A stretch of DNA of 64,000 nucleotides from Microthyrium microscopicum (Eukaryota): the NCBI GenBank assembly GCA_010405405.1, contig MU004235.1, forward strand, positions 1,809,539 to 1,873,538. The letters run 5' to 3'. The notes under the pieces were generated by a model. That model had not been told where the DNA came from. It saw nothing but the letters and a program-made list of their open reading frames with translations, and did not search any database. A program made the position numbers and the translations under genes. Positions 3,691 through 28,300 of this stretch are shown piece by piece (the stretch's first letter is position 1; every line of letters starts with the position of its first letter).

Positions 3691-6600
3691 ATATATTTAA
3701 TATAAGGAAATTTTAACCTCTTAGTATTACTTTAGTATACTTCTTCTTTTAGCTTCTCTTTCCTCTTCTTTCTCTTTTTTCTTTTTATTATTATTATCTT
3801 CTATATTAGTAATTATAAGTAATATAAGTAACTCTACTTTCTTTTTCTTAATTTACTATTTAGCTTCTTATTTTTATAATAATTATTATTCCTTTATATT
3901 CTATATTAGAAGTAAAGAACTTATTACTTTTTACTTTAAGCTATATATATGTAAAGGTAATAATATATTTATAATAGATATAAAATTAGTATAGAAGAAA
4001 AATACTTATAGAGTTAAATTTTAAGTTAATAATACTTATAAGCTTAGCATATACTTAATCTATATTTATTTACTAACTAGAGTAGATAATATTTAAGGTA
4101 GTAATAAAGAATATATTAGTAGTATTAGTAGAAAAGAAGGCATTTTAAAATATACTAAGCTTATATCTAATATATACTTAGTCTAAGTAATAGCTAAGTA
4201 TATATTACTAAGGTAGGCTATTAGATAGTAAGTAGGGGTTAATTTATCTTATATAGAAAGAAACTAACGTTTTATTCTTTACTTATATTAAGTATTCTTC
4301 TAATATATATATTCTAAAAGTTTAGTTACTTCTATTAGCGCTATATAGTTAGTTAGGATCTTAATACTTATTAACTTAAACTTACTATTAAGTTCTTAAA
4401 CTATATAGTATAATCTATATATAGTTAGTATAGGCTATTATAGAATAATATAATATATACTTTAATATTGTATTAAATAAAGATATTTACTTTCTAATAA
4501 TATAATTCTTAATATAATAGCTTAATTTAATAAGGTTATTTATTTATTTAGCAAGTAGCTATTAAGTAATATTAATTTTAGACGTATAAAATATAATTCT
4601 TAAAAGAATCTACTTAATTGTCTTATACTTAAAAAATAATTTTATCTTAGAGTATATTAAGTATATAACTTATATATTACGCTATATACCTTCTTTACTA
4701 TAAGCCTCCTACTAAATAATATTAAGTTTATTTATTAGTACGTACTTAAGAAATTTCTTTATTAGATTTTGCTTTAAATAGACTTTATAGAACTTTAATA
4801 TGTACTTAGTATATTTAATTTAATTTTTACTATTATCTTTTATTTTAAAATATAGTCTAAGACTTAGACTATTATTAGTATATATCTACTATAAGCTTAG
4901 AATAAGTAAACCTTTTACTTATTTTAAGTATATATTAATAGTAATAGCTTAGATTCTAAAGTAGCTAATATAGCCTTACTATATAAGTATATAAGTAGTA
5001 TTACCTAGTTATATAAATAGCTTTATAAATATTTACTAATATACCTTAATAATATTAGTTATTATAAATACGTAGGTATAGACGCAAATTTCTATATATT
5101 AAGGTTAGTATATACTAAACGTAATATAAAATACTTACTTTAGCTCCCTAGATTATAGCTAATAATAAAATATATATTCTAAGGTCTTTATATTATATAA
5201 AATATAAAGTCTATCTAAAATACTAAAACTCTAGTAAATACTATAACTTAAGTATAAGTAAAGCATATAATAAAGTAATTATCTACTAAATTCTTAATAT
5301 ATAAAATTGTCTAAATCTACTAGTATTTAGTACTATTATAGGCTTTATACTATTATATAAAGCGTATCCTTAGCTTATAATTAGCTTATATAGAACCTAT
5401 ATAAAATATAAAATAAACCTTAAAGACTAGTACTATATAGATACTACTTAAGTTATTTATAGTAAATTTATACTCTAATCTAATTAGTATTTATAAGTAA
5501 TAAGTAAATCTTAACTAGACTTATTATTTAAAGAGCTTTATAAACCTCTTAAGCCTTCTAAAATAAAGGAAACCTTTTTATATAAGGTTAGTATATATTA
5601 TAGTTAGAACTAAGTTATACTTAATATATACGTTTTATTATATTAAGTATATTATTTTTAGTAATAACTTAACGTATTAAGTTAGAGTACTCCTTTAGGA
5701 CTAATATAGGTAGTAGTAAATAATAATTATATGCTTTATATATAATAAGTAATATAAATAGATATTTTTACTAATACTTTAATAAGTAAACGTTAAACGT
5801 AGTAGGATATTATTATTCTAGTAGGTCTCTAAATATATAAATTAATATATTTAGTACTTCGTAAGTAACGTTATAGTATAGTAATTAGCTTATTCTTAAG
5901 GTAATATATATATATAACTTAATTAGCCTATAATAAATATAAAGCAAGTTTATAATAAGCTATTTTAATAACTTAAAGTTATATTTATTAGTATTAATAT
6001 AAGTTATAAAGTAAAATTTTCTATTATATAATATATAAGTATAGTAATAACTAAGAAACTAATTCTATATATATTATTAGAAACTAACTAGTTATATCTT
6101 ATACTTAATATACTTTATATTAGTTAAATAATTAGAATATATACTATATATATACTAGAATTAGTTACTTATAAGTTATTATATATAGAGAAGTTAAACT
6201 TTTATATTAATCCTATACTATAATAAAGAAGCTATATTTATTAGACTTAGTATAGGTTAAATATAAGTTAATAATAATATACCTTTTTATTCTTTCTCTT
6301 AACTATACCTCTAGCTTTAATATATATCTTTATAATTTATAAAGCTTATATAACTTATTTATTTTACTAAGATTAATATAAGAGTACGCTAGATTTATAT
6401 TAAGAATATAAAGATATTAATACTAATAGACTTAAATACCTAAGTATTTCTAATAATAATAATAAGTACGTACTATATTATTATTTTTACTAGTATAGAG
6501 TAGAAATTTAAGTATTATAGGCTTAGTACTACTAATACTTTAATAACTAAACTAAATCTAAGTATAATTAGTATATACTTAATATCTTCTATTATCTTAG

Positions 6601-8440
6601 CCTTATGAATAATATAAACTACTTTAAAATATTATTTATTATTCTTAAAGCCTCTAGGTCCTTCTTCTTTATTATAAGTATAAGTCTAAAGTATACTAGC
6701 TATAGATTCTATAATAGAGATACTATATAAAGAATACCTCTATTAGTAATATATAAATAAAGAGAGAATATTATATATATTTAGTATTTAAAGACTTATA
6801 TAGATTTAATATTATTACTATTTATAGTTAATTTATACTAAGTAAGGTATTCCTATATATTATATTAGTATAGTATATACTAAGTAGAGATATATAAATA
6901 GCTTTTAGTTAGCTTTAATTAAATTTAAATACTTACTCTTCTTTATCTTTATTCTTAACTTTTATAAGTTTAGTTTTTAAGAATATAAATAACATAGATA
7001 AAGTATATATAAATAATTAGCTATAAAGCCTAAGTTATAATAAGAGTATAGTTATATAGTAACTTAAATATATACTAAAGTAATAATATAAAATTAATTA
7101 GATTAGTTATAAGGTTTAATATAGCTATACTATTATAATTAAATTCTATATACTAGGATTAGTTTATAATAAGCATATATTAACTATCTACTATAATAAT
7201 ACTTATATTACGTAATATACTAGTTTATATACTTTTATATAAAGGCTATATATACTACTTTTATATATATAATATATAGAGGTATAAATTATATAGAGGT
7301 ACTATGCTACTATATGCTAAGAGTAAGCTATACATAGGCCCTTATGTAGTAAAGACTACTAATTTTTCTAGCGTGATTTTCTAAGGGTTAGCGGAACCAC
7401 GTCGTCGGTCGCGCGGCTTGGCCAGACTGCCAATCGATGTCTTCCTGTTGCGACCGAAAGCTCTCGGAGGACCAGATGGCTTTCTGTCTACAGGAAGATA
7501 ACTTGAGGAGTAGAGCCGAGAGAGGGGCGGGTTATCTTGCCATCTGCCAGTGCCAAATGTAGTATGTTTGGTGGTTGAAGTGCATACACCACAGCCTGCT
7601 TTTGTGTAACCCAACTTTCCTCTCGCAGAATCTCTTCAAGCTTGCGCATATGCTTTGGCGATTCCCACAGTCTCCTCAGTTGACCCGTTAAATCGTCATC
7701 TCAACCGTTGTTGATCCTGCAGCCAATTCCACTTTAGTCTTGGAATCTAGGAGGACTAGGATCCAATCTTGGAGGCCATAATTGCCCATTTGAACCATAC
7801 ATCAACTATCAACTGACAGCCCCTTTGCGCCCTTCTACAACACGACATTCTGATCGCGCCCAGGTCAACTTCGCCTTTTCCACTGTTCAGACCATCTTTA
7901 CCTTGTTGCTCAAAAAGGTTTCCCCGCTTACAGCCTAACTGTCGGTTGCACAACTACCACTGCTTATACGGAGCCCTTGAAAGAGCCGCACACCTTTGGT
8001 CCACGTTGTCCCCGGAAACAATAACGCTTAGACGACTTGTAGGTCACGGAACGTCAACTTCATCTGCGTGCGAACGTGACTCTTGCAACTCATCTATCGG
8101 CCCAATTTTTACCTTGACGAGAAATCGCACTGGTGACCTCGAGGTTCATTGCTATCCCCCGTCCGGTTCTTCCATCCTGGCCGTGATCCTGGAAACCGGC
8201 AGATAAAACCTCCATTCAACAACTTGAACTGTTAAAGCTTGCAGAGTCAGTGCCCGACCTAGCCAGCAATCCAGTGATCCTCTGATCCAGACTTGTCAAA
8301 CCGTCAAGCCCTTTGGCAAACCTTTGACCAACTACTCTACCCAGCTCTGATCTCCAAGGTCCGCAAAGGGGCACGTACGGAAGGGAAGGGTATCTGCGCT
8401 GCCAGTCGCGCTCCGCTTCCTTCAGCGTATATTAACTTTC

Positions 8441-9484
8441 TATAAACAGCGCCTGCACAAGGGTCACCTGCTATAGTTGTCGAGCTTGAGCCATCTTGCA
8501 ATCTGCAATCTGCAATTTGCATTTGAAGCCTCGCGCGCGACTCCGCAGCCTCACTTTGCGACGGCCGCTTGCTTTCGCCCAGTTTCTGCCCACGCCTTTG
8601 CCTGGCGACGCAGAGGCGATTCGCATTTCTACTTGAGCGTGCATCATTGCTTTGCGCGCTCTTTGAGTCTGATACTTTCCTGAACCTGCCCAGTGCTTGC
8701 CGCGCCTCTTTTTGGTGGGTGCAGCGCGCTTGGCTCCATCACAGAAAGAGCCTCATCGTTCCCGAGTCCAAGCTTCCGACTATCTTGCGGCTCAACTCCC
8801 AACTTCCAACTGCCACCAACACACTTGACGTTACGCAGTCGGCACGGTACGTATGTCTCACTGCATATCAACCTCACTTGTTCTGTTTCGAGTAATTTAT
8901 ACTTTTATCATTTTGCTGCTTTTCATCTGCACTCTCTGCTTGTATATCCACTGCACTCCTTCATCTCTGCTACTTGCACAGTGAGGGGTTCACGCTGGTT
9001 CAAGAGTCCAAGACATTCAATTCGCATGCATATCCACCGCCATTGCTCAAGCTGTTGTTTCCAAACCAATTTTGTTTCAACTCTCTATTCCATCACTATC
9101 CAACCTCGTCCTTGTCGGTCTTTATTGTTTCGGCTATTACTGCCAACTCCCTCCACCATGCCCTGTCTTATGTTTCAAGCGCGTCCTATTGTTCTAAAAG
9201 CGAAAAGCGGCTCGTGCGACCGACATCCCGTCTTGCGTAATCTATCTCCATCGCTCAGAGTTCCTGATCGAGGGTCTCCCCTCCATTAAACACTTTGCCG
9301 TGCGTCCGATTCACTCTTGCTATTGCTCTACTATGTCAGGGAGATCGAGCACAGACTTTGCTTGTCGTTCTTGACTCTTTAAATGTCCCTAGCACTTCCC
9401 TACCCGGATTTCTTTTTGTGCGCCTCAGCCTTGTTGGCTACAGCTTGTTCCTGAACATGGCTAACGTTCGTTAAGTTTACTCAG
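8441..9484 (+). promoter_or_regulatory. Putative TATA box and long 5' leader with a ~630-nt UTR intron of the C2H2 gene
   Basis: TATAAA at 8441; donors GTACGT (8847) / GTATGT (8851); pyrimidine-rich interior; branch CTAAC at 9461 with AG at 9475 or 9484; ATG at 9629. Confidence 0.4.
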
Positions 9485-9628
9485 GTACTGTCCTGGGCTA
9501 TTGCCAACAGCCCAAGTTGCTGTCGTCATTTTGAGAGCTGTGTCTTTCAGTGACAGCCTCGTCATTGTCATTCCCTTACAAAAAGCGACATACTCAAACG
9601 ACGTTTATTCAATTGTATCTGGATATCG

Positions 9629-11767
9629 ATGTTAGAACCCGGAGATCCATATGATTCAGATGACCCACTCGCTCCATCCGTCGAGAAACTCATGCCTGTA
9701 CGAATACAACATTCACCGGAGAGATCACCACCTAGGAAGAAGTCGATCCAAGCGCCGGCGAGGCCGTCCCACATTTTCAAGGAAGCTCCGTCGCACGGAG
9801 ACCGGTACTTGCTGAGCTTGTTGGCCCCTAGCAGACCTGATTTAGCCATAGAAGGAGGCGATAAGGTCCTATTTGATCGCCGTTCGGCGTCTCCTGATCG
9901 CAAGGACATTGTCGAGGAGACAAAACACGAGCCTGTAGAGGAGGTGGTGGATTGGGACGAAATATTACATGAAAGGTCCGTCGCAGAACAGGAGCAAAAA
10001 GCAAAGGAAGAAGAGATGAAGCGAAAAGAATTTGAGCGAGAAGAGAGTGAACAGAAGAAAAAGGCAAGAGTTGCAAGTTTAGCGCTGTTCAACGAGACAA
10101 CTGATGGTACTAAAAAGTCCCCACCGATCAAGTTCCCAGATCTAATCACCCCGAGTCCACGGCCATTCTTTGAAAAACCACGGAGTATTCAATCCAAGAG
10201 TCTTGCGCCAAAGCCAACAAAGCCAAATGGACTCAACATTGAACATATAAATACAGAGTATTCGAGGCCCAGGACGGAGACAAACCCGGACTTTCAGAAT
10301 CCTCCTCATACAGCGCATCCTAGAACTGGTCACATTCGGTCAGCACAACGGCGGACTTCAGAACCGGCTATCAGAAGTGGTAGTGGCACTTCTGAACTTG
10401 CCATGTCTTCACTTGGGTCGCACCTGATGGAACCACCAACACCGGACGATCGTCTTCCTACTATCTACAGTCCCACATCCCCAAAACAACTGGGACCCAT
10501 CTCACCACCATCGCAAAAGCTACCATCGATAGGTCGCATGTTTGAAATTGCAGAAAAATCCCAGGCAGAGGCAGCCATAATACAAAGTCGTCAACGCCAA
10601 CAATCTATAAGTTCTTCATCAGCAATAACTCAACCATCACCAACCTTCTTCGGCGCTCCTTCTCCCTTCCCTAACACGACCGGGTTTGCCGCATCTCCAC
10701 CAGCACCAATAGACACCGCTGCTACATCGCCACAAGAATTTGGAAAGACACCTGCTTCGGCCACGTCACCCAGGTTCAATTTACCGTCATCATACCGCCG
10801 CTCTAGCAACGTATCAGACATATTTCATCCTCTACATTCTGCCGGCGCAGCGTCAGAAACACATACAAGTCCCAGCATATTCAGCCCTGCAAGTCAGACC
10901 GGAACTTCAATGACAACCCCCGGAGAGCACGGCGCTTCGTCGGCTGATACTCCTCGAAGCGTACAGCATTTTCAACATCCAGTGACCATGGGTACTCCTA
11001 GTGCCTCAGGAGATTTCCCCATCACGAGTCCCGAATCCATGCGACGAGCCTCAATGAGCGCAATGACTCTTCCTTTACCAAACGGCGCTTCCTCGCCAGA
11101 GGCTCAACATCAAGGGGCAGGGACATACAAATGCGACTTCCCCGGTTGCACAGCCGCCGCGTTTCACACGCAGTATTTGCTCAAGTAAGTTTGAATTGAT
11201 ACCCAGCCGATGACAAATAATGGCGTGCCTTTATCAAACGCGTTGGCTCCCATTTACTACTTTCTATCATGTAGTGATTTATTTCCCATATAAGGTGTTT
11301 GTATGTTAACGGTTCATCGACTACAATGGGAAATAAGCAACTTTTGTTGAGTAGTATCGGAGGTAGCCATCGCAGCCGATAAGGGCGTGACATTCCTTTG
11401 TCAAGCTGTTGAGCCCCTTTATATGTCAATATCTAACCGTGTCTCTAGCTCACATACTACGGTGCATTCGTCCTCCCGTCCACACTACTGTCCAGTCCAA
11501 GGCTGCGCCCGGTCCGTCACAGGATCAGGATTCAAGCGCAAAAACGAGATGATACGCCATCAACTCGTCCACGAATCGCCCGGCTATGTATGTCCATTCT
11601 GTCCGGAACGTGAACACAAATATCCCAGACCTGATAATCTGCAACGACATGTAAGGGTTCACCATGCAGAGATTCAGACTGGAGACAGACGACTGCGCGC
11701 TGTTTTGGACAAAAGGACTAATATAAGGGGCACTGGTCGACGGCGCAAAGGCTCAGCATTTTCGTAG
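9629..11767 (+). CDS. C2H2 zinc-finger transcription factor (three C-terminal fingers); exons 9629-11184, 11449-11767
   Basis: Splicing GTAAGT(11185)...CTAAC...TAG(11448) joins CDFPGC...YLLN-SHTTVH into a complete finger, followed by CPVQGC...HQLVH and CPFC...HVRVHH; Ser/Pro-rich N-terminus. Confidence 0.9.
11185..11448 (+). other. 264-nt intron folding into a long nested hairpin; related to the CCATC/GATGG intron family
   Basis: Nested stems tgacaaa/tttgtca, cgtgcctttatc/gataagggcgtg, tggct/agcca, tactact/agtagta, ttatttcccat/atgggaaataa; shares tggctccca, ttatttcccat and gccatcgca with introns at 15178-16864. Confidence 0.7.
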
Positions 11768-12503
11768 ACGCTCTTTCATCGAATGAGTTGTCTACCATGT
11801 CATGAATTTTAAAAGAAACACGACATCATTTCATATTAAGACAGGCGTTTCTGGCCAGTCTCTCTAGGTTATTGGAGGCCTCATCTCGGCATACTTTGGA
11901 TTTTGATACCCCGGGACTTTGCGTTGTCTAGCCCTTCGTTATTTAGCGGTTCTTGAAATACGTTCTTACCTTCACTTCTTGTTTTCATTATTCCAGCATC
12001 AAAAACTTATGCTCTTTAGTTAGTAGCTACGAGATATACGAATATTGTCAACTCCAACTCCTTATGAGGTGTGCATCTTTCTTTGTAATCAATGCATCTT
12101 AAACATTATATCTGACTCAATCCAAGCCTGAATTAGCAATAACTACCTCAAGCGCATAGTCCATAACTTGGTAGTAAAGTTTCATGGTGCATCAGGCTGT
12201 ACCTTCAGCCTTGCTGCTGCTGCTGCCCACCCCACTATCACGAACAATCCCAGCCCCTTGCATAAATGTCCGTCCCTTGATCCCCGCTATCGCTCCGATT
12301 GTCTGAACGATTTCTGGGAATGCTGGAAATAAAGATCACCAGTTACTAGTACGATAGAACCTTTCCCCATCCTCCTACCCATCCTCCTACGCAACTCCCT
12401 TCCTCGACCTTTTCATTTTTCCAACCACCACCTGCAAATTAGCAGTTCGATATATACCTACCTACCGATATTGGCGTATGACACTAGAAATGCGGCTGCC
12501 ATA

Positions 12504-14435
12504 ATGCGCTTCAATTCCATCGATTTGACACTCGGCGACGTGCGCGGTGGCATCTACAAATTACTCGAACCTAGACCTGACGACGCGGATAACGGTGCGG
12601 ATAACGATGTGGATATAGATGTAGCGAAGAATGGGGGTGATTTTGACGTTGAGGGGTTTACGGTGCGGGAGGAGGCGTTGGTTGGGAAGTTGGATAGAAG
12701 GATTATGCCGTGTTTGTTTGGGATGATTGTTCTTAAGTAAGTTCTTCCGAGGAACGGGATATGTATACTGGGTAAACGGTTGGGATAAGATGGATGGACG
12801 GTGCTATAGGAGAAGTTTGGGAAGAGCTATGTTGCTGATATGTGTGGCAGTTACCTTGATCGTAATAGTCTTGCGAATGCTCGCATTCAAGGCATTGAGC
12901 AGGCTCTGGGTCTTTCTGGGTCGGATTTTAGTACGGCGATTTCGGTGTTCTTTGTGGGATATATTGGGTTGCAGATTCCGTCGAATTTGCTGATTACGAG
13001 GGTTCGGCCGAGCATATATCTTGTAAGCAACGCTCTTATTTCCTTCTAGAGGCTTTGTTGACGGTGGGATTCTAGCCTGGGTGTATGATTGCTTGGGGTT
13101 TTCTGTCTGGCGCGAGCGCGTTTGTGACGAGTTTTAAGGGGCTTGTGATGGTGAGGTTTCTGCTTGGCTTTGTTGAAGCGTAAGTTGCAAATCCCGATAT
13201 GGGAGAGGGAGCTCCAGCTAATGAAAGTTTGTAGGCCATTTTTCCCCGGTGCCTTGTTTTTGTTATCCTCCTGGTATACGAGGAAGGAACTTGCGCTGCG
13301 GACTGCCATTCTGTATGCGGGGAGTTTGTTAGCGGGCGCATTTGGAGGTCTTGTTGGAGCTTCGATTGAGTACTTTTTCAATGGCTTTATGGGTGTCGAG
13401 TCGTGGCGGTATGTATACATGGTATAACGAGAAGGAGTTCACTAACTGATGTAGTTGGCTTTTTATGATTGAGGCGTCGTGTACTATATTGCTGGCCATA
13501 TCCGCCATGTAGGTTGTAGATGAGCTGTTGATGACACTGCTAATTTGAAAAGGTTTATACTGCCAGACTACCCTCACAGCACCAGATTTCTAACACCCGA
13601 CGAGAGAGCGATTGCCATGAGACGGGTGCAAGATCAAAGTGGAGTAAAAGATTCCACCAAAGGCAGTTTGATGACTGGTCTGAAAATGGCTCTCACTGAC
13701 TATAAAGTCTGGCTACTATCGTATTTCTTCCCTCATTATACCAGTAAAATCAGGTCACTGACAATCCAAGGCTTATCATTATCACCAAAACGAGTGCTGG
13801 CGCTGTCACATCTTTCATACCCACTCTTGTTGGAACTTTTGGCCTAGGACGAGTCAACACTCTACTACTAGTCGCTCCTCCTTATGTATGCGCAGCAGCT
13901 ATGACATTGGTCATCTCTCGAATGAGTGATCGACTAGGAGATCGAGCATACCATATCATGGGGCCTATGGTTCTTGCTGCTCTAGGTTTCTTCTTCGCCG
14001 CCGTCACTTTGAATACCGCGGTTCGCTATCTTTCCCTCTTCCTTATGCTAGGTGGCGTTTATGGAAGTTACAACGTCGCTCTGGCATGGATATCTAGCAC
14101 CGTAAGCGGCAATCACTGTCTCTGTAAGCATGTTTGGCTAACCTATCATGCAGTTACCACGACCAGTCGAAAAGCGATCCGCAGCCATAGCAATCATCAA
14201 CACGATGGGCAATGTTGCCCAGATCTACTCACCATACTTCTACCTGCCTGAAAACGGCCCACGGTATCTCCTGGCGATGGTGGCGAATGTATGTTTCTGC
14301 GCAGCGTGTATTGGCGTCACGGTAGTGCTACGGAAATGTTTGAAGCAGGAGAATGAAGATCTTACGAGGCGGAAGTACGATGATGGATACGATATTAATG
14401 AAGTAGATGAGATTGCGTATCGATATACATTGTAA
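12504..14435 (+). CDS. MFS transporter, allantoate/nicotinate permease (Dal5/Tna1-like) family; exons 12504-12736, 12851-13022, 13076-13179, 13235-13408, 13455-13508, 13553-13720, 13771-14101, 14154-14435
   Basis: Family motifs KLDRRIMP, NYLDRNSLANARI, QIPSNLL, RFLLGFVEAPFFPG..LSSWY, LPDYP..TRFLT; canonical GT-AG introns keep the frame. Confidence 0.9.
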
Positions 14436-14904
14436 GACTAATAAAATACAATCATGACTACACGAAGAACCTTTATGTTTGCCCAGTACTGCAAAGTGCC
14501 AAAAGACACTGATATCTTTAGCGCATCCAATACAGGAATTCCAAACAGTTATCATACAAACTTGATACTTAGAAACCAACATAAGCTAATCTAGATACCT
14601 ACCTAGGTAGAAGCAAGAGCAACTCCCACAAAGTAGCAACGACTTTTGAAATGCCCCAGAGTAGCATTGATAGACCCAGCAGAACCAGCAGAACGAAAAT
14701 GACATCGGAAGGGTAAAGGCCAAACTCATTACCTCCTTGAACCTGCCAAGAATCCACGTATGCAGGTTCAGGACTTCGGTCTGTTTGGCGTTGTCTACGC
14801 CAACGTTGTATCTCCTCCCCTTTAACCGCCTCTACCCTCTGTGGGATAGAAGAGTTGGCCAGGGTTGGGGAGGTATGCTGGTCTTCATTGCTTACTGCTG
14901 GAAT

Positions 14905-17021
14905 CTATGGAGTATTAGCAGAGTCATTTTCAGCAGTTACTGGGTGATATAACTTTTGCAGGCGGAGCAGGCGGTTGTCTAACATGAGCTGTTCCTTGTC
15001 CAGTTTGAGGTTTGCGATCTCCTTGCCAGATTCGGCCTTTTGCTTCCCCAAGTCTGTTAGCGCCTTTGCGTGGATGACCTCGAGCTTTTGAATGTGGCTA
15101 TGTAGATTGGAGATCTTGGTGAGGAGAGGTTGGACGCTCATGCTGGGAGCTTCTCCACATTTTTTCTTCTCAAGGGCCTGGGATTGGTTAGTATCGTGAT
15201 GTGATCAGTAGTCATGCGTTGCGTATTGACTGGGTCGTGTGATCTTTTCGTGGGAATTTGGAAAGCACAAACACACGTTATGGAAGCGGTGGGAGCCATC
15301 GAATGTGATGGCGCCCACTACTGCTTTTGGTAATGTCGAAGATTGTCGGAAGGATTGGGATAGGGAGACACTTACATCGCGGTACATTTGGAGTTGCCCG
15401 TTGAGTTTCTTGACCTGCTCGCCTGCGGCAGCCTTGCCATCTACCAACTCTTTCTGGAGCGCTTTCCTACCCTCAGAAGAATCGAATTGTTGTAGCTTCA
15501 AAGCCTGGAATAGTCAGCAAAATGTCAAATCTGAAGGCGATGTGGTGACGACCAAAAATGTCATGGAAGCCATCGCATGTGGTGGGAGCCATCAAATGCG
15601 CTGGCAGCCACCGAAGCTTTAAACCGATTTCGAATGCCTTCAATGTGGTTGGGAGTTAGGGAATCTTACCTGCTCGAGCGACCCATTTGTCCTGCGAAGA
15701 TCTGCGATTGTATTATCTTGGGCACGAATGGTCTCGGCTTGCTTTTCTCCGGCTTCTTCGAGGTCACAGATGGTCTTTTTCAAGGCCGAACTGGATTTTG
15801 TCAGTATAGATTACAACGCAACCAGAGCTAACACGCCATGTGGTGAAACCTTGAAACTCCCATCGCATCTGGTGGGAACCATCGAGTGCGATGGGAAATA
15901 CAAGGTTTTTGATTTCATCGTTTGTCTCTAGGAAATGTGGGTTGACACGGGAGAATCTTACCTAGAAACTGTTAGTATACGATTGTAATCCGAGCTAAAA
16001 CGTCTGAAAAGCGCAAATGATCTCCTCAAGGTAAAACCATAAAACACCCATCGCACTCTATGGCAGCCATCGAGTGCGATGGGGGATTTGATTGTTTTGG
16101 TCCCGTCGGATGTCGTCAAGATATTTGGTTTGGCATGGGGGGAATCTTACATCTTCTCAGAATTATACTTCTCAATATCCACCTTCTCGCTCCAGTAATG
16201 CTTCCGGATCGCGGTAATCTCGTTCTGAGCAGTGGAGAGCTTGTGACGAAGGATCGCAATCTCCTTCTCATGAACCTCTTCCAAGGCTTCATGGGCTTCG
16301 ATCGTCATCAACAGCTGGCATTTGTTAGAGAATGGGGGCAAAACTGAGGTTCGCTGGTAGGCTGGAGAATTCTGGCGTGCTCCCATGAACGTCGATAATG
16401 CCCATCGTCTTTGATAAGCAGGAGATGCTCTTCTTGCCATCACACTCGATGATGACGAGGACATCTGATGGCAAAGAAAGCATCCAATGGGAAATAACAA
16501 GTCCGATGGGGAAAACATGACTTCCAAAATATCGCAGTAGATGGCAGCCATCAAAGCAGCTGGGAAGTAAAATTCACCGAAACAAGCTCATCCACCTCCT
16601 CCGGGATGCTCTCAACATCATCGGAATCACTACCAATCATCTCACAATCATCGCTATCGGACCACTCTACAAGCACTGTTAGCTCAACTCCGGGATACTG
16701 AAATAGCGAAAAATGCACAAAAGTCGAGACCCCGGATTTCGGCCATCAAATCATATGGCCAGAAACGCACTTCATCACGCCCATCGACTCTGATGGACAA
16801 GAAGAGAGCTTATCACAAAACACAGATTATGTGGAATGTTGTTTCCAGGAAGATGAAAACATACCAGATTCAGAAGACTCCGCCAACTCACAGAAGCTAC
16901 CCTCCGAACTGCAGTCAGTACCAGAGACTTCCATTCTGGGCACGACGTTCAGGACCTCTGGCTCTGAGGTCCAGCTCATGGCGCTGCTTGGGCGGGAAGG
17001 AATGGTGGGGATAGATGCCAT
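14905..17021 (-). CDS. Orphan ~310-aa protein with acidic N-terminus and coiled-coil C-terminus; exons 17021-16865, 16666-16578, 16314-16151, 15790-15670, 15504-15376, 15177-14905
   Basis: Six introns, each with GT donor, CTRAC branch and YAG acceptor; splicing gives an uninterrupted 933-nt frame (...YNSEKISALKKTICDLEEAGEKQAETIRAQ...). Confidence 0.75.
15178..16864 (-). mobile_element. Six related long hairpin introns (introner-like element candidates): 16864-16667, 16577-16315, 16150-15962, 15961-15791, 15669-15505, 15375-15178
   Basis: 37-nt core aligns without gaps at 16047-16083, 15859-15895, 15569-15605 and 16528-16564, partially at 15288-15312; CCATC-N6-GATGG unit at 16781-16796; three introns start GTAAGATTC. 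Mobility itself is inferred. Confidence 0.6.
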
Positions 17022-18004
17022 GTTTGGAAACGAGTGTTGTTACTTGGGGTAGTAGTGATTTGCTAAACGGGAAACTGGTTTGGGACAAAATGTAGAAATT
17101 GGAAGTGAGATGGGTGGAAAGGAAAGAAACGAAGAAACAACAGCAGATGGAGGGCTTATAAGGGATTAGATACCTGGAAACGTCACTTCTGGGAAATAAT
17201 TGGTTTGTGTATGGTACAAATGAGCCATTAATTCTCGACTTGTTGGTGTCTACCTGTTGCTATTGTTCGTGGTTGATATTGGGTACCAAAGAACTTTGGT
17301 TCCAGGAAATTGAATGGGATATCGTGAAATGTATAAAACTGTTGAAAAGGTAAGCATCACTTTCTAAAGTTCAAATAGAGTAAGGAACGGCTGGAAAGTT
17401 TGAAATAATTGATTCTGGTATCTGTATATCGTTTCGTTCGTGAGTTGAGCGCATCGGGTGCTTGCTTTTTAAAAATGGAGAGTGGTTTTCTCCACCTCTA
17501 CCAAAGATCTGGCCTTTCAATATGATGCACAAGTAGGTAGGCTAAGAAGGATACCGGTACTACTCTGATGGTAAGGCCATGGCGTGCTGGAGTGAAGCCT
17601 GTTTACCAACCAAATTCCAATTCCCGGGCTCTTCGGTGCTCCCTGGTTGGATTATGGACATCGACAAATATCTACCAATAAATCGAAGGGAGTCAGGTGA
17701 TGCTGGTTTGAGTCGACAAGTTACTCGACAGACTAATGTGGCCAGGTGTAAAACACTAGACAGCGACATAGTGGCCACAGATGGCTTGTGAATGACATGC
17801 CAGGAGTTCAACGACATCGTTGTTGAGAAGCTGGCTTTGGATGTGTTCCCTATGAGAGATTCCGGATCCCTGAGGCTTTATGGGAACCAGTCGACAGGAG
17901 GCCCATACATTTGCTTTTGTAAGATTAGTTTGGAGATTCCGGTCAGGATCAGCATGGCATCCAAAGTCATCTTCTTTGGTGCGGTGGGTCGAGTGAAATC
18001 AGGA

Positions 18005-18687
18005 TCATTTCTCCGGAGCATCAGGTAGTCTTTCAATGACATATTTTCCTGGCGAATGGTCAGTCAAGTCGGTGGGTACAGAGATCGTGACTTACCTCTA
18101 GCGACGGACATGATGGGCACACCCGGCACCCTTCTTATGCGTCTCTTCAGGTCTCTATCATTTGTAGCAACGATATAGATTTTGTGTCTTTGTATCCTGT
18201 CCACAATGCAGTCATCTGCATATACGCCTTTGTGGTCACACTTTAGCCGTTCCCAACGTTCGTCTCGTGCAATGCGCAAAGCTATGCGATATCGAGGACC
18301 TAGCTTTTCCAACTCTGCCATCACACACGATGTGATGATCGGTTTGCAGGTGGCATAGAGACAAGACATCATGCTCTCGAGAAGGTCGAGTTTCTTGGAG
18401 ACCGTATGGCTGAGGAAATTGGTATCGACCAGGACATGATATGGGGGACGGAGGGCGGCGTTGTATTGAAAGAAGAGACTCGAGGATACTTGTGGACTGC
18501 GCATCATTAGTAGCTGTATCTTCCATCGTGAGGGTGGTTAATCTTACACTTCACGGATCACCTCATCAGCCTTTGGCTTTTTCTGAGCCTCTTCATTGGC
18601 AAGAATATTCTTCTTCAAACGGGAGTCTCGCTGTGTGATTTGGAGCTTCTTTTGCGCAAACTTGCGAGTCTTTTTGGCGCGCGACAT
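18005..18687 (-). CDS. FCF1: rRNA-processing PIN-domain protein Fcf1/Utp24; exons 18687-18548, 18496-18096, 18048-18005
   Basis: MSRAKKTRKFA...PQVSSSLFFQYN..PPYHVLVDTNF...CVMAELEKLG...HKGVYADDC...VATND.DLKRRIR..PGVP...YVIERLPDAP; canonical introns. Confidence 0.95.
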
Positions 18688-19540
18688 GGTTGCTGTGTTA
18701 TTGGGATCAGGCAGTCTCTGGCATAAATCGTATTTGTCAATGTCTGATGGTGTAGAGGTTTGGTCTATCGAAAAAAATATGCAGCTAAATTTAGGACGAG
18801 GGGCGACTGGGATGAACTATCGATCGATGACATAAGCATCTTTGATTTGCTCGTGTGGTAACTCTAGAGACGGCTGCTGGCCTTGGCGGTATTTGGTTGC
18901 TGCAGGTGCGTGTCGATTTGGTGCAAGAGCGACCGGGTTAAACTGCATCGAGGCAAGATTGAAGGCAGGCACGACCTGGGGCAGCCCATGATCCATGCAT
19001 CAAAGCCTCTTCATCTGCGCCTGCCGCTCCCTTTCTCCCTGGTTTGATCTCTTTTGGCAGTGGCTCCCCAGAATCCAGAATCGTGCCTGCCATTCCTGCC
19101 AATTGCTCCTTCCTCAATCTCTTCAACTCTTCAACACCATACTTTGTATCACCAAGTCTTTTCTCTTCTTCCACTGCGTTGACGAGTCACCAAAGAACCC
19201 ATTATACATATATCATTACTGCCTCCTTTGTTTGCAACACTCCCTCGTCAACTGTTGTGCTGCCCTCACTGCCCTCGCCCTGTTTCACCACTCCTGACAT
19301 CCAGCCAACGTCTACGCTTTCGACCATCTATACATCGCGATACCTTGAGCGCGTCCATTGTTTCAATCTGTGTTCTGACAGCTGCGGAAACTAGTTCTGT
19401 AGTTCTTGTTCTCCAACTTGCGCCTCAAAGACTTGCAGCTCGGACCGCGTATCGAATTCGACAACATTCCTCCGAAGCGCTACACAAACGGTCAACTGTC
19501 GTCTTCGTCCTCTCCTTACCACCATCCCATATAGCCCATA

Positions 19541-20626
19541 ATGGATAGACGGAAAGACATGAGCTTACAGCTGGTCGTGGCACTGCTTCTCACTGGCTGG
19601 GCGTCTGCACAAAATAACAATAACAACCAGCAAACGACCACCCAGGCCAACAACAACCAGCAGACCACAACAGCAGCTCAGCCAGCGACGACGGCGACGA
19701 CTAATAATAACAACAACCAACAGACTAACTCTCAGACCGGAAATACACAGACCTCACAAACAAATCAAGGAACCACTCAAGGCATAACGGGTATTCCAAC
19801 TGCAACAACTGCTTCAAGTACAATTACTTCTGCCTCGAGCACAATAGATGCAGGATCTGGACCAACAGATCTACCTACGATTGCTGGCTATGGCATCCCC
19901 ACTATGGTTGTTCCTTGGACCGCCGGCGCCCCATTCATGTACAAGTCGTCTCTACCAGAAGGTACTGTCTTCATATGCGTAGGCGCTCTTCTTGGAGCAA
20001 TGGGAGCGGCGGTTTTGATATGGCGAGGATTAGTTGCATGGTCTCTACACCGCAGCGTTAAGAGAGCAAACCGAAACCTACTGGCTCCTACAGACGGCAA
20101 ACTGTCCAAGGGCGGTTATGGCAACAGCACTATCGCTTTGGCTTCAGCCAACATGCATTCCATGGATCATCTTGCAACACCGGCAAAGAAACCTATCGCC
20201 CGTGCCAGTCTTGCACAAACTCCGGCCGCAGCACGAAACTCATCTCTATTTTTCTCTCCCACTGCCGGCGCTGGCCACCATACCCCAGGCACATACAACT
20301 CCAACTCTGTCAACCGCTCGTCAAGTTATCTACCATCTGGCTACTACGCTGCACCTGGCGCCGCTGCTCCAGGCGCTACACAAATCGGTTCTGGAACATC
20401 CCGCGCGCACGCCCGCCAGTCGCGCTACGAAGTCTCTCCACCTAGCAGTCCTGGTCTTCCACCAAGCCGCGGCGGTGCAAGCATTCACGGTGGTCAGCAA
20501 ATGTACACGCAGCCAAGCATAAGTAGCTTGAACTTGCATGTACCCGGCAACGCACAACCTGGTGGTCGAGCTCCCAGTGCCAATTTGGATGAGCTTTTTG
20601 GTAATGACCCGCATACACGGCGGTAG
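19541..20626 (+). CDS. Single-pass membrane protein, Csi2-like (signal peptide, N/Q/T-rich ectodomain, TM helix, Ser/Pro tail)
   Basis: Intact 361-aa ORF; segment APFMYKSSLPEGTVFICVGALLG..AVLIWRGLVAWSLHRSVKRA resembles fungal Csi2-like proteins. Confidence 0.75.
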   Translation: MDRRKDMSLQLVVALLLTGWASAQNNNNNQQTTTQANNNQQTTTAAQPATTATTNNNNNQQTNSQTGNTQTSQTNQGTTQGITGIPTATTASSTITSASSTIDAGSGPTDLPTIAGYGIPTMVVPWTAGAPFMYKSSLPEGTVFICVGALLGAMGAAVLIWRGLVAWSLHRSVKRANRNLLAPTDGKLSKGGYGNSTIALASANMHSMDHLATPAKKPIARASLAQTPAAARNSSLFFSPTAGAGHHTPGTYNSNSVNRSSSYLPSGYYAAPGAAAPGATQIGSGTSRAHARQSRYEVSPPSSPGLPPSRGGASIHGGQQMYTQPSISSLNLHVPGNAQPGGRAPSANLDELFGNDPHTRR

Positions 20627-21175
20627 AGCCCGCTTGGCAGTATTGCGCAGAAATCTATTGATTCGACCAAAGACTGAGGAAGCGGTAATGTAGTCGAAAA
20701 CCTAGCAGTCAAAGAGTCATTTTGGTAGGGGCGTACGCTTATGATGAGGACGCTACAGTCGCATATGTATTCTTACCCAAGATCAGTCTGTTCGCAAGCA
20801 CGAGCGGCATAATTGTACATGACTTGGGGATCATTGGGTTTAATGGCGTTGGAACCGCATGGGAAGCGGACTTTTGGCATGTCGTGATGGTATTCTACTT
20901 CTTGTTAGTATAGTTGTACTCCAAACAATAATGCCATTCAATTAACTCTTAGTCCTTACTTTCTCACAATCGGACGCGCTAACATGTCAATAGAGATCTA
21001 ATCTTTTCCAAGACTTACAAGCTCACATCACATCAAGACGGGATTGACATAACCGATAACAACGGAGCAAATATATTCTTCTACATCCATACCAATTGCT
21101 TTAAAATCCACCAACACCATTAATGTACAAACCCCAACCCTCCTATCCCTCCCCTTCACCTTCATCCTCATCCCC

Positions 21176-21703
21176 CTAATTCACAATCGTCATCGGCTTC
21201 GCCTTCTCCTTCTGTTTGGGCGCTGCATCATGCCCATGTCCCGTCGCCGCACCCAACGGCGTCCCCGGCGCTGGCATCGCCGCCGCTGGCGTCTGCGCTC
21301 CTCCCTTGGCCCCTCCTTTGGCTCCTGGTCCGAATAGTTTGTCTAGGTCATACTCGCCTTGCACCATGCTGGGAATCACACAGCCGTTGCAGATTCCTGT
21401 GCCGCCGTTGTGGTCGTGCACGCTGTCGTGGTTGTTGTGGGTGGCCATGTGGCAGCCGCCCATGCAGAAGGCGTCTTCGACGGTGCGGTCGACTGATGTT
21501 CCGCATTGCTGGGGGTTTGTTAGTGGGTGGAAAGGGTATTTGGGAAGGGGGGTTGAACGCTGGAGGATATGGGGAATGGGGTCACGTACCTTTGTGCAAG
21601 TTTCGTGGATTATGGCTTCGCATTTTTTGCAGTCTGCTTGGACGGTGAAGGCGGACGCGAAGGTCGCTGAGGTGAGGACGAGAAGGGCGGTGAAGAGTTT
21701 CAT
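21176..21703 (-). CDS. Small secreted Cys-rich protein, effector candidate (~148 aa; intron 21589-21509)
   Basis: Signal peptide MKLFTALLVLTSATFASA; 8 Cys after splicing; GTACGT...CTAAC...CAG intron; Gly/Ala/Pro tail. Confidence 0.8.
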   Translation of the reverse strand: MKLFTALLVLTSATFASAFTVQADCKKCEAIIHETCTKVRDPIPHILQRSTPLPKYPFHPLTNPQQCGTSVDRTVEDAFCMGGCHMATHNNHDSVHDHNGGTGICNGCVIPSMVQGEYDLDKLFGPGAKGGAKGGAQTPAAAMPAPGTPLGAATGHGHDAAPKQKEKAKPMTIVN

Positions 21704-22708
21704 GATGTCGAGTATTTGAGGATACGTTTATGTGTTTTTTTTTCTTGTCGAATGAGTGTTGTAGTTGAGTATTTCTCGTATTTTGAATAATTTTCGTTTG
21801 TTATACCTTAGGCGGGAAAAATGGGCAGGACGTTCTACTTTAAGGACTTGTACACACGGTCGTTCAATACTTGAACAGCTATTACACCGAGCCGCATATT
21901 AAAAAGGGGCAAATGGCAAGTACTATGGGAATCTAGGTTGACGTTTATCATGTCACAGCTTACACACTACATGGCCGCAAATTAATAAGAGTAAAACTAT
22001 GGCACGACTACTGTGTTCGTCTACCGCTCCGATAGTCTCTGGCGGGTCATGATTGTAGGGTCAACGCGGGTGTCCCGTTCTTAGAACGTCCAATATACTA
22101 TAGAATGCGTGGGCAAATATTTTCTGTTTTGCGGTACAAGTGTTGCTTGGGCACTATAAGGCAGGGCCAAGAATAGGTGGTGGTCTTGATCTGACGTGTC
22201 TCAGAATTATAGATGACAGGTTATTAGTTGAGCCTCGACTATAGTTAGGTCTACGTAATAAGGTCGAGATTGTTACCTCCTTGTCACTTTGGGTTTACCC
22301 GTGGATGTATGAAGATATAGGTATTTCTTGTGTACGGGTTGAGGATCGGTACTCTAGTGTCGTTTGTTTGTTTGATCTCTACAGTTTACTTGTTTGTTTC
22401 GACTTGACATTAAAGTTGTGTGTTTTTGAGCTTCTATTTGGAACCTCTATGCCTAAAACACATTGTCATACGTTGCGAGTGTTGCAAACAGGGAAAAGAA
22501 AAAGAAAATAAGTATTAAAATCAAGTCGTCATCAGTCAGTGACTGACAGGTCTGAGAATATCATGGATCCAAACTCATCGATTACCTAGGTACATGTCTT
22601 ATTTAAGTTGATATAACAATACATTGAATAAATAGGGCCTACAATCGGAACGATGAAATGAAAGCAACATCCACTTGAGTGTACGTGGAGTCACAAAGTT
22701 TACAAATG

Positions 22709-25381
22709 TTACAGAAAAGCATCAGCTGCAAGAGCTGAAAGTATCGTCACAATACCAGCGCCTTGAAGAGCTGATCGCGTTGTCGTGCTTCCCTTGCGAG
22801 CTCCAACAGAGCGGCTCCTTTCTTGTCCACTTCTGCTTTGGTCGTGATCATCTTGTCTTCCTTTAGAGGAATCTCTTCGAGTGGAAGAGCTGCGTGGCGG
22901 TGAGTATTCCCTCTCTGAAGAAGAATCTGGGTGTCTGGAGGAATTTCTCCTTGTTGAAGATTTTCGCCTAGTAGAGGAATCCTGCTTATAAGTCGTACTT
23001 TGAGACGAGCGGCGGTCCTTTCTGTCTCTATCCTGTTCTTTCTCTCTTTGGCGTTCTCTTTCATGTTCACTTTCTCGTTCTCGTTCACGCTCACGTTGCC
23101 TGTCTCTCTCGTCCCGTTCCCTACGCCTCTCCCTATCTTCTCTTTCTCTCCGCTGCTCCCTTTCTCTCTCCAATTCTCTTGGTCTCTCATCTTCTTGAAA
23201 GCTCACACTCGGCCTCTTGGATCTTTCCACCCTCTCACTCTGTCTCCGCTGCGGACCCATCGGAGGCGGTCTAGAAGCCGTACTCGATCTTCTGCGATCA
23301 CGACCACCTTGACCACGCTCAGCCATGCCATTTTCCTCTAGCACTTGATCTAGGTCGCGAGTTGTTGGAGCCCAAGACGGCACCATACTCCGCTTCCGAC
23401 CATCATCCGGTCTGGTCCTGACCAACTGCTGACTGCCTCTGCGCGCATCATCTTCGCGCCTGATTGCTTCACTGCGTTGCACGAGAGCGAGCACGTCAGC
23501 ATACTCAAGAGCGCGAGGGATCTCGTAGAACTTCCGAAAGCGTGTACGCTGCGCGTCTTCTACGCTACGCTGAATCACGCGTACTTCGCCCATACGACTT
23601 TCGCGTAGTGCAGAGGACTCGACTAGGCTTTTGGGAATCTCAGTGACGGTGTCGGATTCGTGAAGTGCACGGCCGGGAGGGAGCGTGCTGTTGTTGTGCA
23701 TCATGATGCCATTTTCGTAGTCCCAGGTGTTATTGCGTAGACGACGGCGCCAGTGTATGGGAATCTCGTAGTCTGGTTCACTGGAAGAGTGGGTAGAGAT
23801 CACGGATGGAGGCACGGCGGTGGTGTTGAATGATTGTTGCATCATACGCTGGGAGATGGAGGAATGGATTGATGGTCCAGATTGCGTTGAGATCACAGAC
23901 TGAGGCGCTGTTGGTGGGCCGGGGAAGGAGAGGGTTGTGCGTTGCATTAATGATGGGAGAGCGCCTAATAAGTGAGAGGATGGTGGTGAGGCTGGAAAGC
24001 TGGTTCGGCGGGCTTGGTTCAAAGAATGCGTCACAGCGAATGGTGGAGCATTCAATGTGTTGGGAGATGTGGAGAAGCTGGATCGTGGCGGCGGTGGTGG
24101 TATCCCGTTTGGAAAGTGCAGTGATGCTGGATCTGGTTGTGCTCCTGACATGACTGGCGATCCGGATGAGGACAGCCATCGATCTGGATTGTTGGGTGCT
24201 AGTCGCATGTCTGACATGACTGACGAATCCAAAGTCGATGTCCATTGTATTGGTCTAGCTGGCGCTGATTTCTGGCGATGCAACGGCAGTGGGATCGGAA
24301 TTGGGCTCGATATTGGTGTTGGGCATACGGTAACCGGCTCCAAAACTGGGGGTGGACCGTTACTCGGCCGACTGGATTTTCGTTTGTTCTTAGAGCGAAT
24401 CTCGTCAATATCTATCTCGTGGTCGTCTTCTACTGTCGCTCGCTGAGAGTTTCTACGAACAAGATCTTCTGGAAAAATGGAGTCATATGACAGCTTTGCG
24501 GTCTGAACCTGATCTCCATGGACCGCAGTCCAACGAGCTAGAAGGACATCGACATGCTGAGAGGTAACTTGCTTGATCTTTGCAATGGACTGACTGTACG
24601 ATTGTCGCTCTGATATGTTGCTCACCAAGGACTGTTCCTGGTAAGGAGCGAGATTCTCCACATTCAACTTGTCAGTGGCTATAATAACTATTGATGGTGA
24701 TTTAGGACTAGCATTTGCCTCTGAAGGTGGAGTCAACGGCCTGTCTTGTTGGAACCCTTGATAGAGGTCCATAGCTTTCACCAGAGCAATTTGTTGCTTG
24801 GCTACCAGACCCTCAATTGGAATCCGTGATGATGCTTTGATCATTTCGACTTGTTGAGCCGTGGCACATGCGCTGTGATTTGTGAGTCACAAGGAATCCC
24901 TAATCACGTCAGGATCATACCTTGATGCTAGAATCATTTGCCCAGCTTGAACACACTGTGCCATAACCGCTAGTGTGGAAGCGAGCGCATCGACGTATCC
25001 AGTTAGATATGGCACTTCTCGGGGCTTTGCATCATGCCATCCCCATCGTTGCTGTAGTGAAGACTCTAAGCTGCCGTCCTGACTTGGCTGCTCGTTACTG
25101 ATTAGAGCCTCAGCTCTATCAAAAGCTGCATGGCATTGCTCCACGAGGTCTGACAAATCGAATAGTGCCTTGGAAGATAGCACGGTGTTGCGCTGGCCTT
25201 GCTCAATTTGTAGAAATGTCGTGAATTGGGCCAATAACCCAGGCAAATGGTGGACTTTATCTGCAAGTTCGTGAAAGTTGTTGTGCTCATACAATCGAAA
25301 GGGTAGTTGACTTGAGCGAGTGAAGAGAAATTGGACCGAATTGACTAAAGTTGATAGCTTCTCTTTTGCCATTACCATCAT
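22709..25381 (-). CDS. Hypothetical protein: helical N-terminal domain, Pro/Ser-rich middle, Arg/Glu/Ser-rich C-terminus; exons 25381-24921, 24872-22709
   Basis: 164-aa and 711-aa ORFs joined in frame by a 48-nt GTATGA...CAG intron; start codon uncertain. Confidence 0.75.
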
Positions 25382-28300
25382 GGAGAGATTGATAAAAAGT
25401 GGTAGCCTGTTGGATTAAGTCTACTAGACACTCAGCAGGTATAAAGTGGCTGTCCAGGATTAGTGTTTGGTGCTTGGAAGCGAAACGAACAGAGTAAGGA
25501 GGTCTTGAGTTATAGCCGATCAGAGAAAGCAATCAAGCAATTGACAGCTATCTTGTTGAATCAGAAGGACGTTATCAAATACACACCACACCCTCAGATC
25601 AAGGAATGGATAAAGCTTTGGGTAATGCCTTGGGTGATCCAGCAGAACCGGTCGTGAAGTCGCCCTATGAGTTGGATCCAAAGTACTGGGAAATCAACAT
25701 GCGCTGATGAAAGCAGAGTGGTCGCATTAGGTGTAGTCCGGTATGCAAAGTGCTGCAGCTACATGGGGGAAGTATGCTATGTTTTTTGACCTGATGGTTG
25801 TCTTGCCAATTAAGTTGGTATATCTGGCCATCGTGACAGCCAACTTATGCCCAGTCAGGTCCGGCCATCCGCTCGGTGAAGCAACAGGACTTAGCGGCTT
25901 GATATGAAAACTAAAGTTATCGTAGATTCTGAACTGCTTAGCTGGATTGCTATCGCATGACTTGCAGAGCCGCAGATCCGGTCGGATTTGCGAACCATGA
26001 GGCAAATCTATTGGTGCTGGATCATGCGTCCACGAGGCAGCTTTTGGTGACGAGGCAGTGCTTTGTACCTAAGTTCTGCCTACTTTGGTACCCAAAGATA
26101 ATTCATATCGTTCTTCTCCTCTTCGGATCTTGATGCATATGAAAGGGCGATATTCTTCTTGATGTTGAGCTCAAACATCGTACCTTGCTTCGACTCCTCT
26201 TTCCTCCGCCCGCGATATGCAACTACGACTCTCTGCACTAGCCAAATCCGGCAGTCTCATCAGCAACCTCTACAGTAGACTTCTTTTCCGCCTGTCCTGA
26301 GGTAGGTGCTAGAAGTTATTTTGAGATAAGAAGTTGTAAACCCTTTCAAAATCAAAGGCTCTGAAGAAATCCATAACTCCTTTGCTAGGGAAACCCAGAG
26401 ATACCCTGTGAGGCTGACCGGTCGCATTTGGCCCAATCGAGACAGCTTGAATGTACACAGCCTTGACAGCCCCACCACACTCGCTTTATGCACACTGTAC
26501 AACATTCCTACTTGCGGCCAATTGATTTGACCGGTAGACTTGTCAAGCTAAGGAACGATATGCAAATGCTCCCAAGCAGTCTACGATCTATGGACCATGA
26601 ACCATGCCGACAGTTCTGATACCCAGTAGTGACACGAAGATGTAGGAATGAGTGAATCGAGAATATACATGAACCATGATCGATCAGGCTGAAGTGTTCC
26701 ATGTATATCGACTGGCCTTTTAATGGACGAAGAACTCGTCTTTTGAAGTTCTTAGTCTCTTCGCGGGAGTATTTGTCTCTGTTAGAAATCGAGACTATCA
26801 AGAGCCTCCATAGTATATTATTACTGCTAATAACCTCTCGCAGCCTTGTTCCGCTCAGTTGGAAATCCAATCATCATGTATTGGGATACTTGTCTCGGAT
26901 CCTCTATCCGGGCCGGTCCATTAAGGTTGGACAAGTGGAAATTCTGCTTCTCCAGCGAATGTTGTTATCTTAAGCCCAAGTTCGTCTGACATTATATTTT
27001 ATCGCCCGACGTGGGACTTCAAGCTGGTTGAAGACACGGGGCGATATCATACACCGCCGGTGCAAGATACTTTCCACGATTACCCTTACAATGAAATCCT
27101 TCTCACTTATGTATGTGACTGTTTTCGGATGACTTTGTTGTATACCTGTCCCTGAACATCAGGCATTTTCCAGAAGTCTTATGCTCGGCTTTTGTCCTCT
27201 CCCACAAGAACACAGTGCATGTAGTGGACGATTCAGTTCAATCACAAATGATGGTGACTCGAGGGCTCGTTAGAATATCAGACACAGTGTCAAGAAACCC
27301 TTCATACATGCTTTTATGCAAAATGTTGTCTGAATAATGGGACGAGTCAGGCAGAGAAGCAACGTTCCATCGTTGATGCTTCCATAACATTGAATCATCA
27401 CTGTGACTTCAAGCACTATTGTAATCTATCTCCTGCCTGTGCTCGCTACAAATGTGTTGGATGTTACTTGCTCTTTATTTTGCCATCGATCGGCCACATT
27501 CGACTGATCAACCGGGGTGAAAAGTGAGGCGGTCAAACGCGTCGCGACCAATGGCTGAAACCACGATGCGGTTATCTAGCCATGCTTTCACTCCACTTCG
27601 GCAGTTGAAAGCCGAGTAAGCGAAGCATTCAATGTGCGTCATGGGTACGATCATGGTAGGATGAGGCCACCTAAATTGTTGGATGCGCAGTTGTGTCTAG
27701 CTTGACCTTCTCCTACTACTTGATCACTGAGGCTCTGCGCATTTCTAACCAGAGATATGGTATTTCAGTCACGCCGGTCAGGTCTGACTATTCTCGTAGA
27801 TAAACACCTAGTATGTATGTTCATTCTAATGGTTCTCATTTACGCGGCTTTTTAGCCTCGAAGATAGGGTCTTTGATATGTTGCAAAGGCGGAAATATCA
27901 CTTTGAGCTGCGCGACTGCCTGAGGACTTGTTATTTTCTCGATACAGTCAATCAAAGACCTGCGTTGAGTTGATTCTGCTCGAACGGTGATCAAAAATGT
28001 CCAGGTTTCGCCAACTGTTTCGTATCGACACTGATACCAGCCCGCCATCACTGAGCAATACTCGACGCAACAGCGCTTGCCGCAACAGTCAGATCTACTT
28101 TTTCCTTGTTCTAACAAGTGAAATACATGATTTTCAAAATTCAATGATAGCATTGGCTCGATACACCCCATTGTGCAACATTCTAGGGAGGCCTTATTGG
28201 CTTTGTGCCAACTCTTTACGTCATGCTTCTGTAGCAAGCTGTTGAGTGCAGCTACAACCTGAGTCTAGCATCTCAAGATGGGAGCATTCTTCACTGGGCG

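Follow-up and report, generated by a model that had tools for sequence, protein, structure and literature searches.

Why should a five-letter motif stand at almost the same distance from the 5' splice site in six introns of a single gene, when these introns differ in length and the sequence in between has diverged? The question arose in a window of 64,000 nucleotides of the fungus Microthyrium microscopicum (contig MU004235.1 of assembly GCA_010405405.1), which belongs by taxonomy to the order Microthyriales of the Dothideomycetes. The initial annotation of this window had explained the spacing either by common descent or by a ruler-like constraint. Descent is supported by the alignment of introns I3 to I6, by the register of I1 and by dispersed copies of the family, and a ruler is not required. 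In fact, the six introns (Table 1) are quite probably variously decayed copies of one introner-like element (ILE), and the constant spacing is best read, from the sequences compared here, as the inherited layout of that element, directly so for I1 and for I3 to I6, with no need for a splicing ruler.

The host gene and its six introns

To delimit the introns, we relied on donor, branch-point and acceptor signals and on an unbroken frame after splicing. GT..AG ends are found in all six, with a CTRAC-type branch site 7-24 nt ahead of the acceptor, and once I1-I6 are spliced out the 310 codons of the host gene form a single open frame. The length range given initially, 165-264 nt, holds at its lower end and now closes at 263 nt, the length of I2. 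At 165-263 nt, these introns are longer than the regular introns of the neighbourhood, for which about 50 nt is the norm: among 12 introns of neighbouring genes confirmed by RNA, ten measure 44-58 nt (median 50.5) and the others 114 and 264 nt.

Table 1. Host gene, its six introns and one long intron of a neighbouring gene (positions in the window)
Feature	Coordinates	Strand	Length	Details
Host gene of the six introns	14905..17021	(-)		310-aa coiled-coil protein, frame open after intron removal
I1	16864-16667	(-)	198 nt	TCCATC 16797-16792 (position 68); decayed family copy
I2	16577-16315	(-)	263 nt	CCCATC 16510-16505 (position 68); composite, three core-like units
I3	16150-15962	(-)	189 nt	CCCATC 16083-16078; palindrome 16041-16089; well-kept copy
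I4	15961-15791	(-)	171 nt	CCCATC 15895-15890; palindrome 15846-15908; abuts I3
I5	15669-15505	(-)	165 nt	GCCAGC 15605-15600; arms GCCAGCGCAT 66-75, ATGCGATGGC 91-100
I6	15375-15178	(-)	198 nt	GCCATC 15312-15307; hairpin 15289-15318
C2H2-gene intron	11185-11448	(+)	264 nt	RNA-contig joint 11184 to 11449

The public model of the host gene is a hypothetical protein of 295 aa (BT63DRAFT_263542, Microthyrium microscopicum). It is identical to our 310-aa model from residue 84 to 11 residues short of the model's end and spans the junctions of I3+I4, I5 and I6, to which its support is limited. Upstream, the two models part: in the public one the start ATG lies inside I2, I2 is translated, and exons 1-2 and I1 are absent. 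The public model also has a small extra intron near 14905-14956, which is read through in ours. Codon usage indicates that the six-intron model is the better one, that I2 is non-coding and that the exons at 17021-16865 and 16666-16578 are real. These two exons, which encode an acidic N-terminus rich in Ser, Asp and Glu, score +0.33 bit per codon in frame and negative values in both shifted frames, and the supposed coding frame of I2 scores -0.01 bit per codon, that is, it has no codon bias. Thus I1 and I2, which unlike I3-I6 have no junction support in the public protein, are probably introns, and the public gene model is probably in error where I2 is translated.

Evidence from transcripts comes from a sequencing run that we call X5, putatively RNA, whose contigs skip GT..AG introns in neighbouring genes. 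X5 contains 0.47 of the sampled words, and a second run, X6, contains 0.07, in short pieces only. None of the contig joints listed (15 of 24) is a splice joint across one of the six family introns. By our own arithmetic, the X5 share and the bin depths would be fitted about equally well by the six-intron model and by a transcript that ends near 16700, retains I2 and has lost I3-I6.

I3 and I4 lie end to end, with zero exon bases between them (...TTTCTAG/GTAAGATTC...). At the junctions of the six introns, a small sample, the contexts have neither repeated flanking bases nor terminal symmetry, and no terminal inverted repeats or target-site duplications are visible at the six intron ends. The flanking exons share no common stretch longer than 9 nt, and exon-intron blocks have therefore not been duplicated. 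The host gene itself is an orphan as judged by protein search: with its last exon as query against 5.8 billion proteins, longer proteins allowed, the sole match was the gene's own product and no orthologue was detected.

Two other features of the window are recorded here for their own sake. Positions 1-8000 have a GC content of 14-28%, against about 47% elsewhere in the window, and include a run of 660 N (1959-2618); in appearance it is an AT-rich block, either repeat-degraded or centromere-like, that borders the gene-rich region. The succinate-semialdehyde dehydrogenase gene at 31454-32860 (+) has no introns. Among its named relatives, the best come from scattered fungi (Chaetothyriales 68-71%, Trichoderma about 66%) and then from many bacteria (59-62%), a patchy distribution that may reflect an old transfer from bacteria.

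The position of the motif and the hairpin that it opens

Counted from the donor, the motif had been said to start at positions 68, 68, 68, 67, 65 (as GCCAGC) and 64 in I1 to I6, and we reproduced all six values. The strict form CCATC starts at positions 65-69 in five of the six introns. This spacing is not due to chance because CCATC occurs in the rest of the window at 0.0013 per position, which gives 0.0065 per intron for a slot of 5 nt, and because CCATC at 65-69 follows just one of the 85 donor-like hexamers that the window has elsewhere. The motif is also abundant within the introns: CCATC and GATGG together number 19 in 1184 intron nt, against a background of 0.0026 per nt, and 2 in 933 exon nt. 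The further motif copies noted earlier in I2 are there as well, with CCATC at 34, 69 and 107.

The same pattern had been extended to the long intron of the neighbouring C2H2 gene, where CCCATT does start at position 65. With a permissive motif set, a match at this place has a chance of about 0.02, and 2 of the 85 pseudo-donors have one likewise, so that its position in this intron may be coincidental. Almost the whole intron folds into a single long, imperfect hairpin (z -3.73) that has perfect 11-nt arms, and its matches to the family profile are weak (E 1.4-28). Probably this intron is introner-like, either of another kind or much decayed; it may stand for a second family of such elements or be a copy of great age. 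The 114-nt intron at 12737-12850, which has GATGGATGG and no CCATC, was rejected as a member of the family.

What does the motif do in the introns? CCATC is the opening of the 5' arm of an imperfect palindrome. The hairpin that the initial annotation had suggested as one possibility is real in the sense that a downstream GATGG pairs with CCATC in every copy. An inverted-repeat search found palindromes in four of the six introns (I2, I3, I4 and I6): I3 has 24-nt arms, 88% complementary and 1 nt apart, I4 has 22-nt arms (86%), I2 has inverted arms of 19 nt at 16424-16442 and 16466-16484 (84%) and I6 has 12-nt arms (92%). The pairing in I5 is between a 10-nt arm and ATGCGATGGC, one mismatch included. 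The core is made of three pieces, of which the first, CCCATCGCAYTY, has two possible partners, GATGG in the middle and the distal RTGCGATGGG; I6, whose distal arm is lost, pairs through the middle GATGG.

Whole-intron folds are more stable than those of shuffled sequences in I3 (z -2.5), I4 (-3.7) and I6 (-4.2) and are not exceptional in I1 (-1.9), I2 (-1.3) and I5 (-0.6). Covariation could be scored in the four alignable hairpins only, where 3 of 21 pairs have changed on both sides, a score equalled by 162 of 500 shuffles. At this level, and with four sequences, the conserved thing may be the DNA palindrome as well as an RNA structure. A search of Rfam gave nothing above the gathering score; its sole match, to mir-392, lies on the I3 palindrome (24.7 bits against 62, E 0.23).

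Kinship of the introns and copies elsewhere in the genome

I3 to I6 align from donor to acceptor and share common blocks: the donor GTAAGATTCYCCC, the arm blocks, the core and the branch/acceptor end. I3 and I4 are 72% identical across 122 nt from the first intron base (E 6e-11). When all six introns are anchored on the motif, a 36-nt core shows 50-81% identity in 15 of 15 pairs, against 26% expected by chance. The claim that the intervening sequence had diverged was a fair one: gapped alignment of the 5' arms is significant only for I3-I4 (z 5.3) and I3-I6 (z 3.6).

The match of I1 to the I3-I6 profile is not significant across the window (E 8). Its core is nevertheless identical to that of I3 at 23 of 36 positions at equal offset, and in an ungapped scan of its 5' arm against those of I3-I6 the best of 25 shifts is shift 0, with an identity of 0.368 (z 3.5) against a mean of 0.257 +/- 0.032 at the other shifts. 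Judged by this register, the I1 arm is a faint in-register remnant of the common origin.

I2 is a different case. It is a composite of units that resemble the core, at about 13-64, 63-98 and 94-154, and its motif at position 68 belongs to the second of them. The I3-I6 profile matches positions 13-64 (E 0.0045), the second unit is identical to I4 at 25 of 36 positions at the same offset and the third is the palindrome at 94-154. Between the I2 5' arm and the family arm, the shift scan found no homology (identity 0.264, rank 11 of 25 shifts). The motif at 68 in I2 is thus probably a coincidence among three repeated units, of about 1 in 10 by a rough estimate. A transition-only decay of the RIP type was considered as the reason why the arms of I1 and I2 have lost similarity at unchanged length, and rejected: their purine/pyrimidine identity to the other arms is 0.45-0.62, not above expectation.

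Could selection, rather than descent, hold the hairpin about 65 nt from the donor? As a ruler or splicing aid, the hairpin would either shorten the effective distance between donor and branch point or be bound by a factor. Hairpins in long yeast introns can cut the effective donor-to-branch distance, and two observations favour such a role here. The distance from donor to motif is 64-68 nt (a span of 4) against 84-118 nt from hairpin to acceptor (a span of 34), and in I2 the motif stays at 68 despite an arm unrelated to the family arm. The asymmetry, tight at the 5' side and loose at the 3' side, would also be expected under a length constraint, but among copies so few and mutually related shared ancestry may give it just as well. 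However, in-register descent already accounts for I3-I6 and for I1, and the length does drift, since I5 and I6 carry a shared 5-nt gap and further small indels are present. Moreover, collapsing the hairpins, which measure 49-66 nt, would leave introns still more than twice the 44-58-nt norm. The shortening of the donor-branch distance invoked by the initial annotation thus fails on size: the hairpins are too small for the introns to approach 50 nt. I6, for its part, has dispensed with the distal arm and forms a different, shorter hairpin, and the covariation in four sequences is not significant. We therefore consider a ruler unlikely.

Descent from a common element also fits with what lies outside the window. 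We aligned the contigs of DNA runs from the same organism to positions 8001-28000. At position 16084, in the hairpin of I3, the summed contig depth is 1920 in run X1 against 104 for single-copy sequence, and 21442 in run X3 against about 1080; contigs with another letter at this position number 12 in X1 and 14 in X3. About 18-20 more copies of the hairpin are thus present on other contigs. At least five X1 records, on contigs of 4.4-40 kb, match the I3/I4 hairpin region over just 67-87 nt and show 8-15 differences there. In one of these other-locus copies the match ends at 15963, 2 nt outside the I4 donor. A second one extends past 16134 and has a GTAAGATT-type donor 15 nt away (16 in I3), followed by unrelated sequence; this copy is also present in the putative RNA run X5. 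The full-length reading is based on the six copies of the host gene, those on other contigs, seen as short pieces and 30-letter ends, being candidate introns of unrelated genes. A metagenome scan with the 17-nt core common to I3 and I4 returned at least 120 loci, and the matches listed had no similarity beyond the word itself. With a best score of 15 bits against the I3-I6 profile and a median GC of 0.60, these loci were rejected as chance matches.

These copies bear on how I3 and I4 came to abut. The hairpin of I3 is closer to a copy elsewhere, from which it differs at 8 positions in 67 nt, than to I4 at the identity given above. This comparison of sequences is a hint that two elements inserted separately at the same splice junction and that neither arose from the other on the spot.

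The copies also bear on a further possibility, that a fold-back or miniature DNA transposon, consisting of the palindrome alone, landed in older and unrelated introns. The palindrome is indeed the most conserved and most repeated part of the family, the other-contig matches listed cover mainly 16030-16134, and the arms of I1, I2 and I5 resemble the rest weakly or not at all. Yet the similarity between I3 and I4 runs from the first intron base through the arm into the core, the donor block GTAAGATTCYCCC exceeds a generic donor in length, and copies at other loci have the same type of donor at the same distance. Independent insertions would not hit one offset six times, and target-site duplications are not seen at the intron ends. 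Such a transposon is, in our judgement, very improbable. A purely local multiplication of the introns within the gene, tandem or segmental, would suit six copies inside 1.7 kb, two of them abutting, but exon-to-exon similarity is absent, many copies lie on other contigs and I3 has its nearer relative among them, so that we give this explanation hardly any credence.

A probable introner-like element and its layout

Descent from one introner-like element would account for the spacing as follows. The element would have had three parts. The first is a 5' arm of about 64-68 nt from the donor, which reads GTAAGATTCYCCC in the better-kept copies. The second is a central imperfect palindrome whose 5' arm starts with CCCATCGCA and whose 3' arm ends with TGCGATGGG, with GATGG in between. 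The third is a more variable 3' tail that carries the CTRAC branch point and the YAG acceptor. CCATC would lie about 65 nt from the donor because the palindrome of the master element starts there. Copies, which we infer to have arisen by insertion, would start out with this layout and decay from there, the 5' arm chiefly through substitutions and the 3' tail through larger deletions or insertions. By analogy with what has been proposed for ILEs, the hairpin may serve the multiplication of the element and not splicing.

ILEs are spliceosomal introns that multiply within a fungal genome, and they are the best candidates for the source of intron gain in fungi. The founding paper on those of Dothideomycetes is reportedly that of Van der Burgt et al. 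2012, and we know of no established way by which ILEs multiply.

ILEs have been described in Dothideomycetes as canonical spliceosomal introns with many similar copies in unrelated genes (PMC3609843; PMC4457414), of about double the length of regular introns and with stable predicted structures (PMC3609843). With time their sequence and length decay to the point where they resemble ordinary introns, and a role in multiplication is suspected for their structure (PMC3609843; PMC4457414); compensatory changes that keep the structure are known (PMC3609843), as are genes with two ILEs (PMC4457414). As far as these accounts go, the family described here resembles Dothideomycete ILEs in its canonical signals, extra length, decay and host class, and in part in its copy number and in its folding, exceptional in three of the six introns. 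It differs from them in that its copies are old, with a core identity of 50-81%, and not near-identical; in that six copies sit in one gene, two of them abutting; and in its number, roughly 20 hairpin matches and not hundreds, as counted from hairpin matches alone.

Other intron families offer partial parallels. Ascomycete introners are described as having neither terminal inverted repeats nor target-site duplications, which was read as spread by reverse splicing (PMC9860276), and none are visible in our small sample of six introns either. The sister introns and stwintrons of Hypoxylaceae likewise form a repeated family, whose inverted repeats are symmetrical about a central palindrome; this symmetry, proposed to act in proliferation and not in splicing, decays in older copies (PMC8469720). 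However, in Hypoxylaceae the inverted repeats lie at the termini, where they place donor and acceptor side by side (PMC8469720), whereas here the palindrome is internal (at about 53-118) and has unpaired arms on both sides. Nor is there a nested (twin) intron in our case, which is one of two introns placed end to end. The transposon-type introners of algae and other aquatic eukaryotes are also multiplying, intron-creating elements (PMC9860276, PMC12130899), but according to these sources most have terminal inverted repeats and/or target-site duplications, which are not visible in the six introns. In the main text of the literature considered, neither the species nor the sequence family is named in connection with introners; the species lists of the surveys may already include the species. 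By its sequence features, the element would fit as a further family within the known ILE kind.

Might the 5' arm and the palindrome together form a functional module? They could set a distance between hairpin and 5' splice site that is needed for the re-insertion of the excised intron; reverse splicing at a splice junction already present, or next to one, would be one route. We hold this to be a long shot, if slightly less so than a splicing ruler. If true, it would account jointly for the tight 64-68-nt spacing with a loose 3' half, for the spacing in I2 and for the abutting copies.

The picture of fungal intron gain is left unchanged by this locus. What the locus offers is a compact decay series, in which a small orphan gene carries six members of a single family, two of them end to end. 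In this series the donor block, the arm length and the palindrome core are the last to disappear, and the 3' tail and the distal arm are the first to go. The gene is thus a convenient test bed for the role of a hairpin, or of its spacing, in splicing or mobility.
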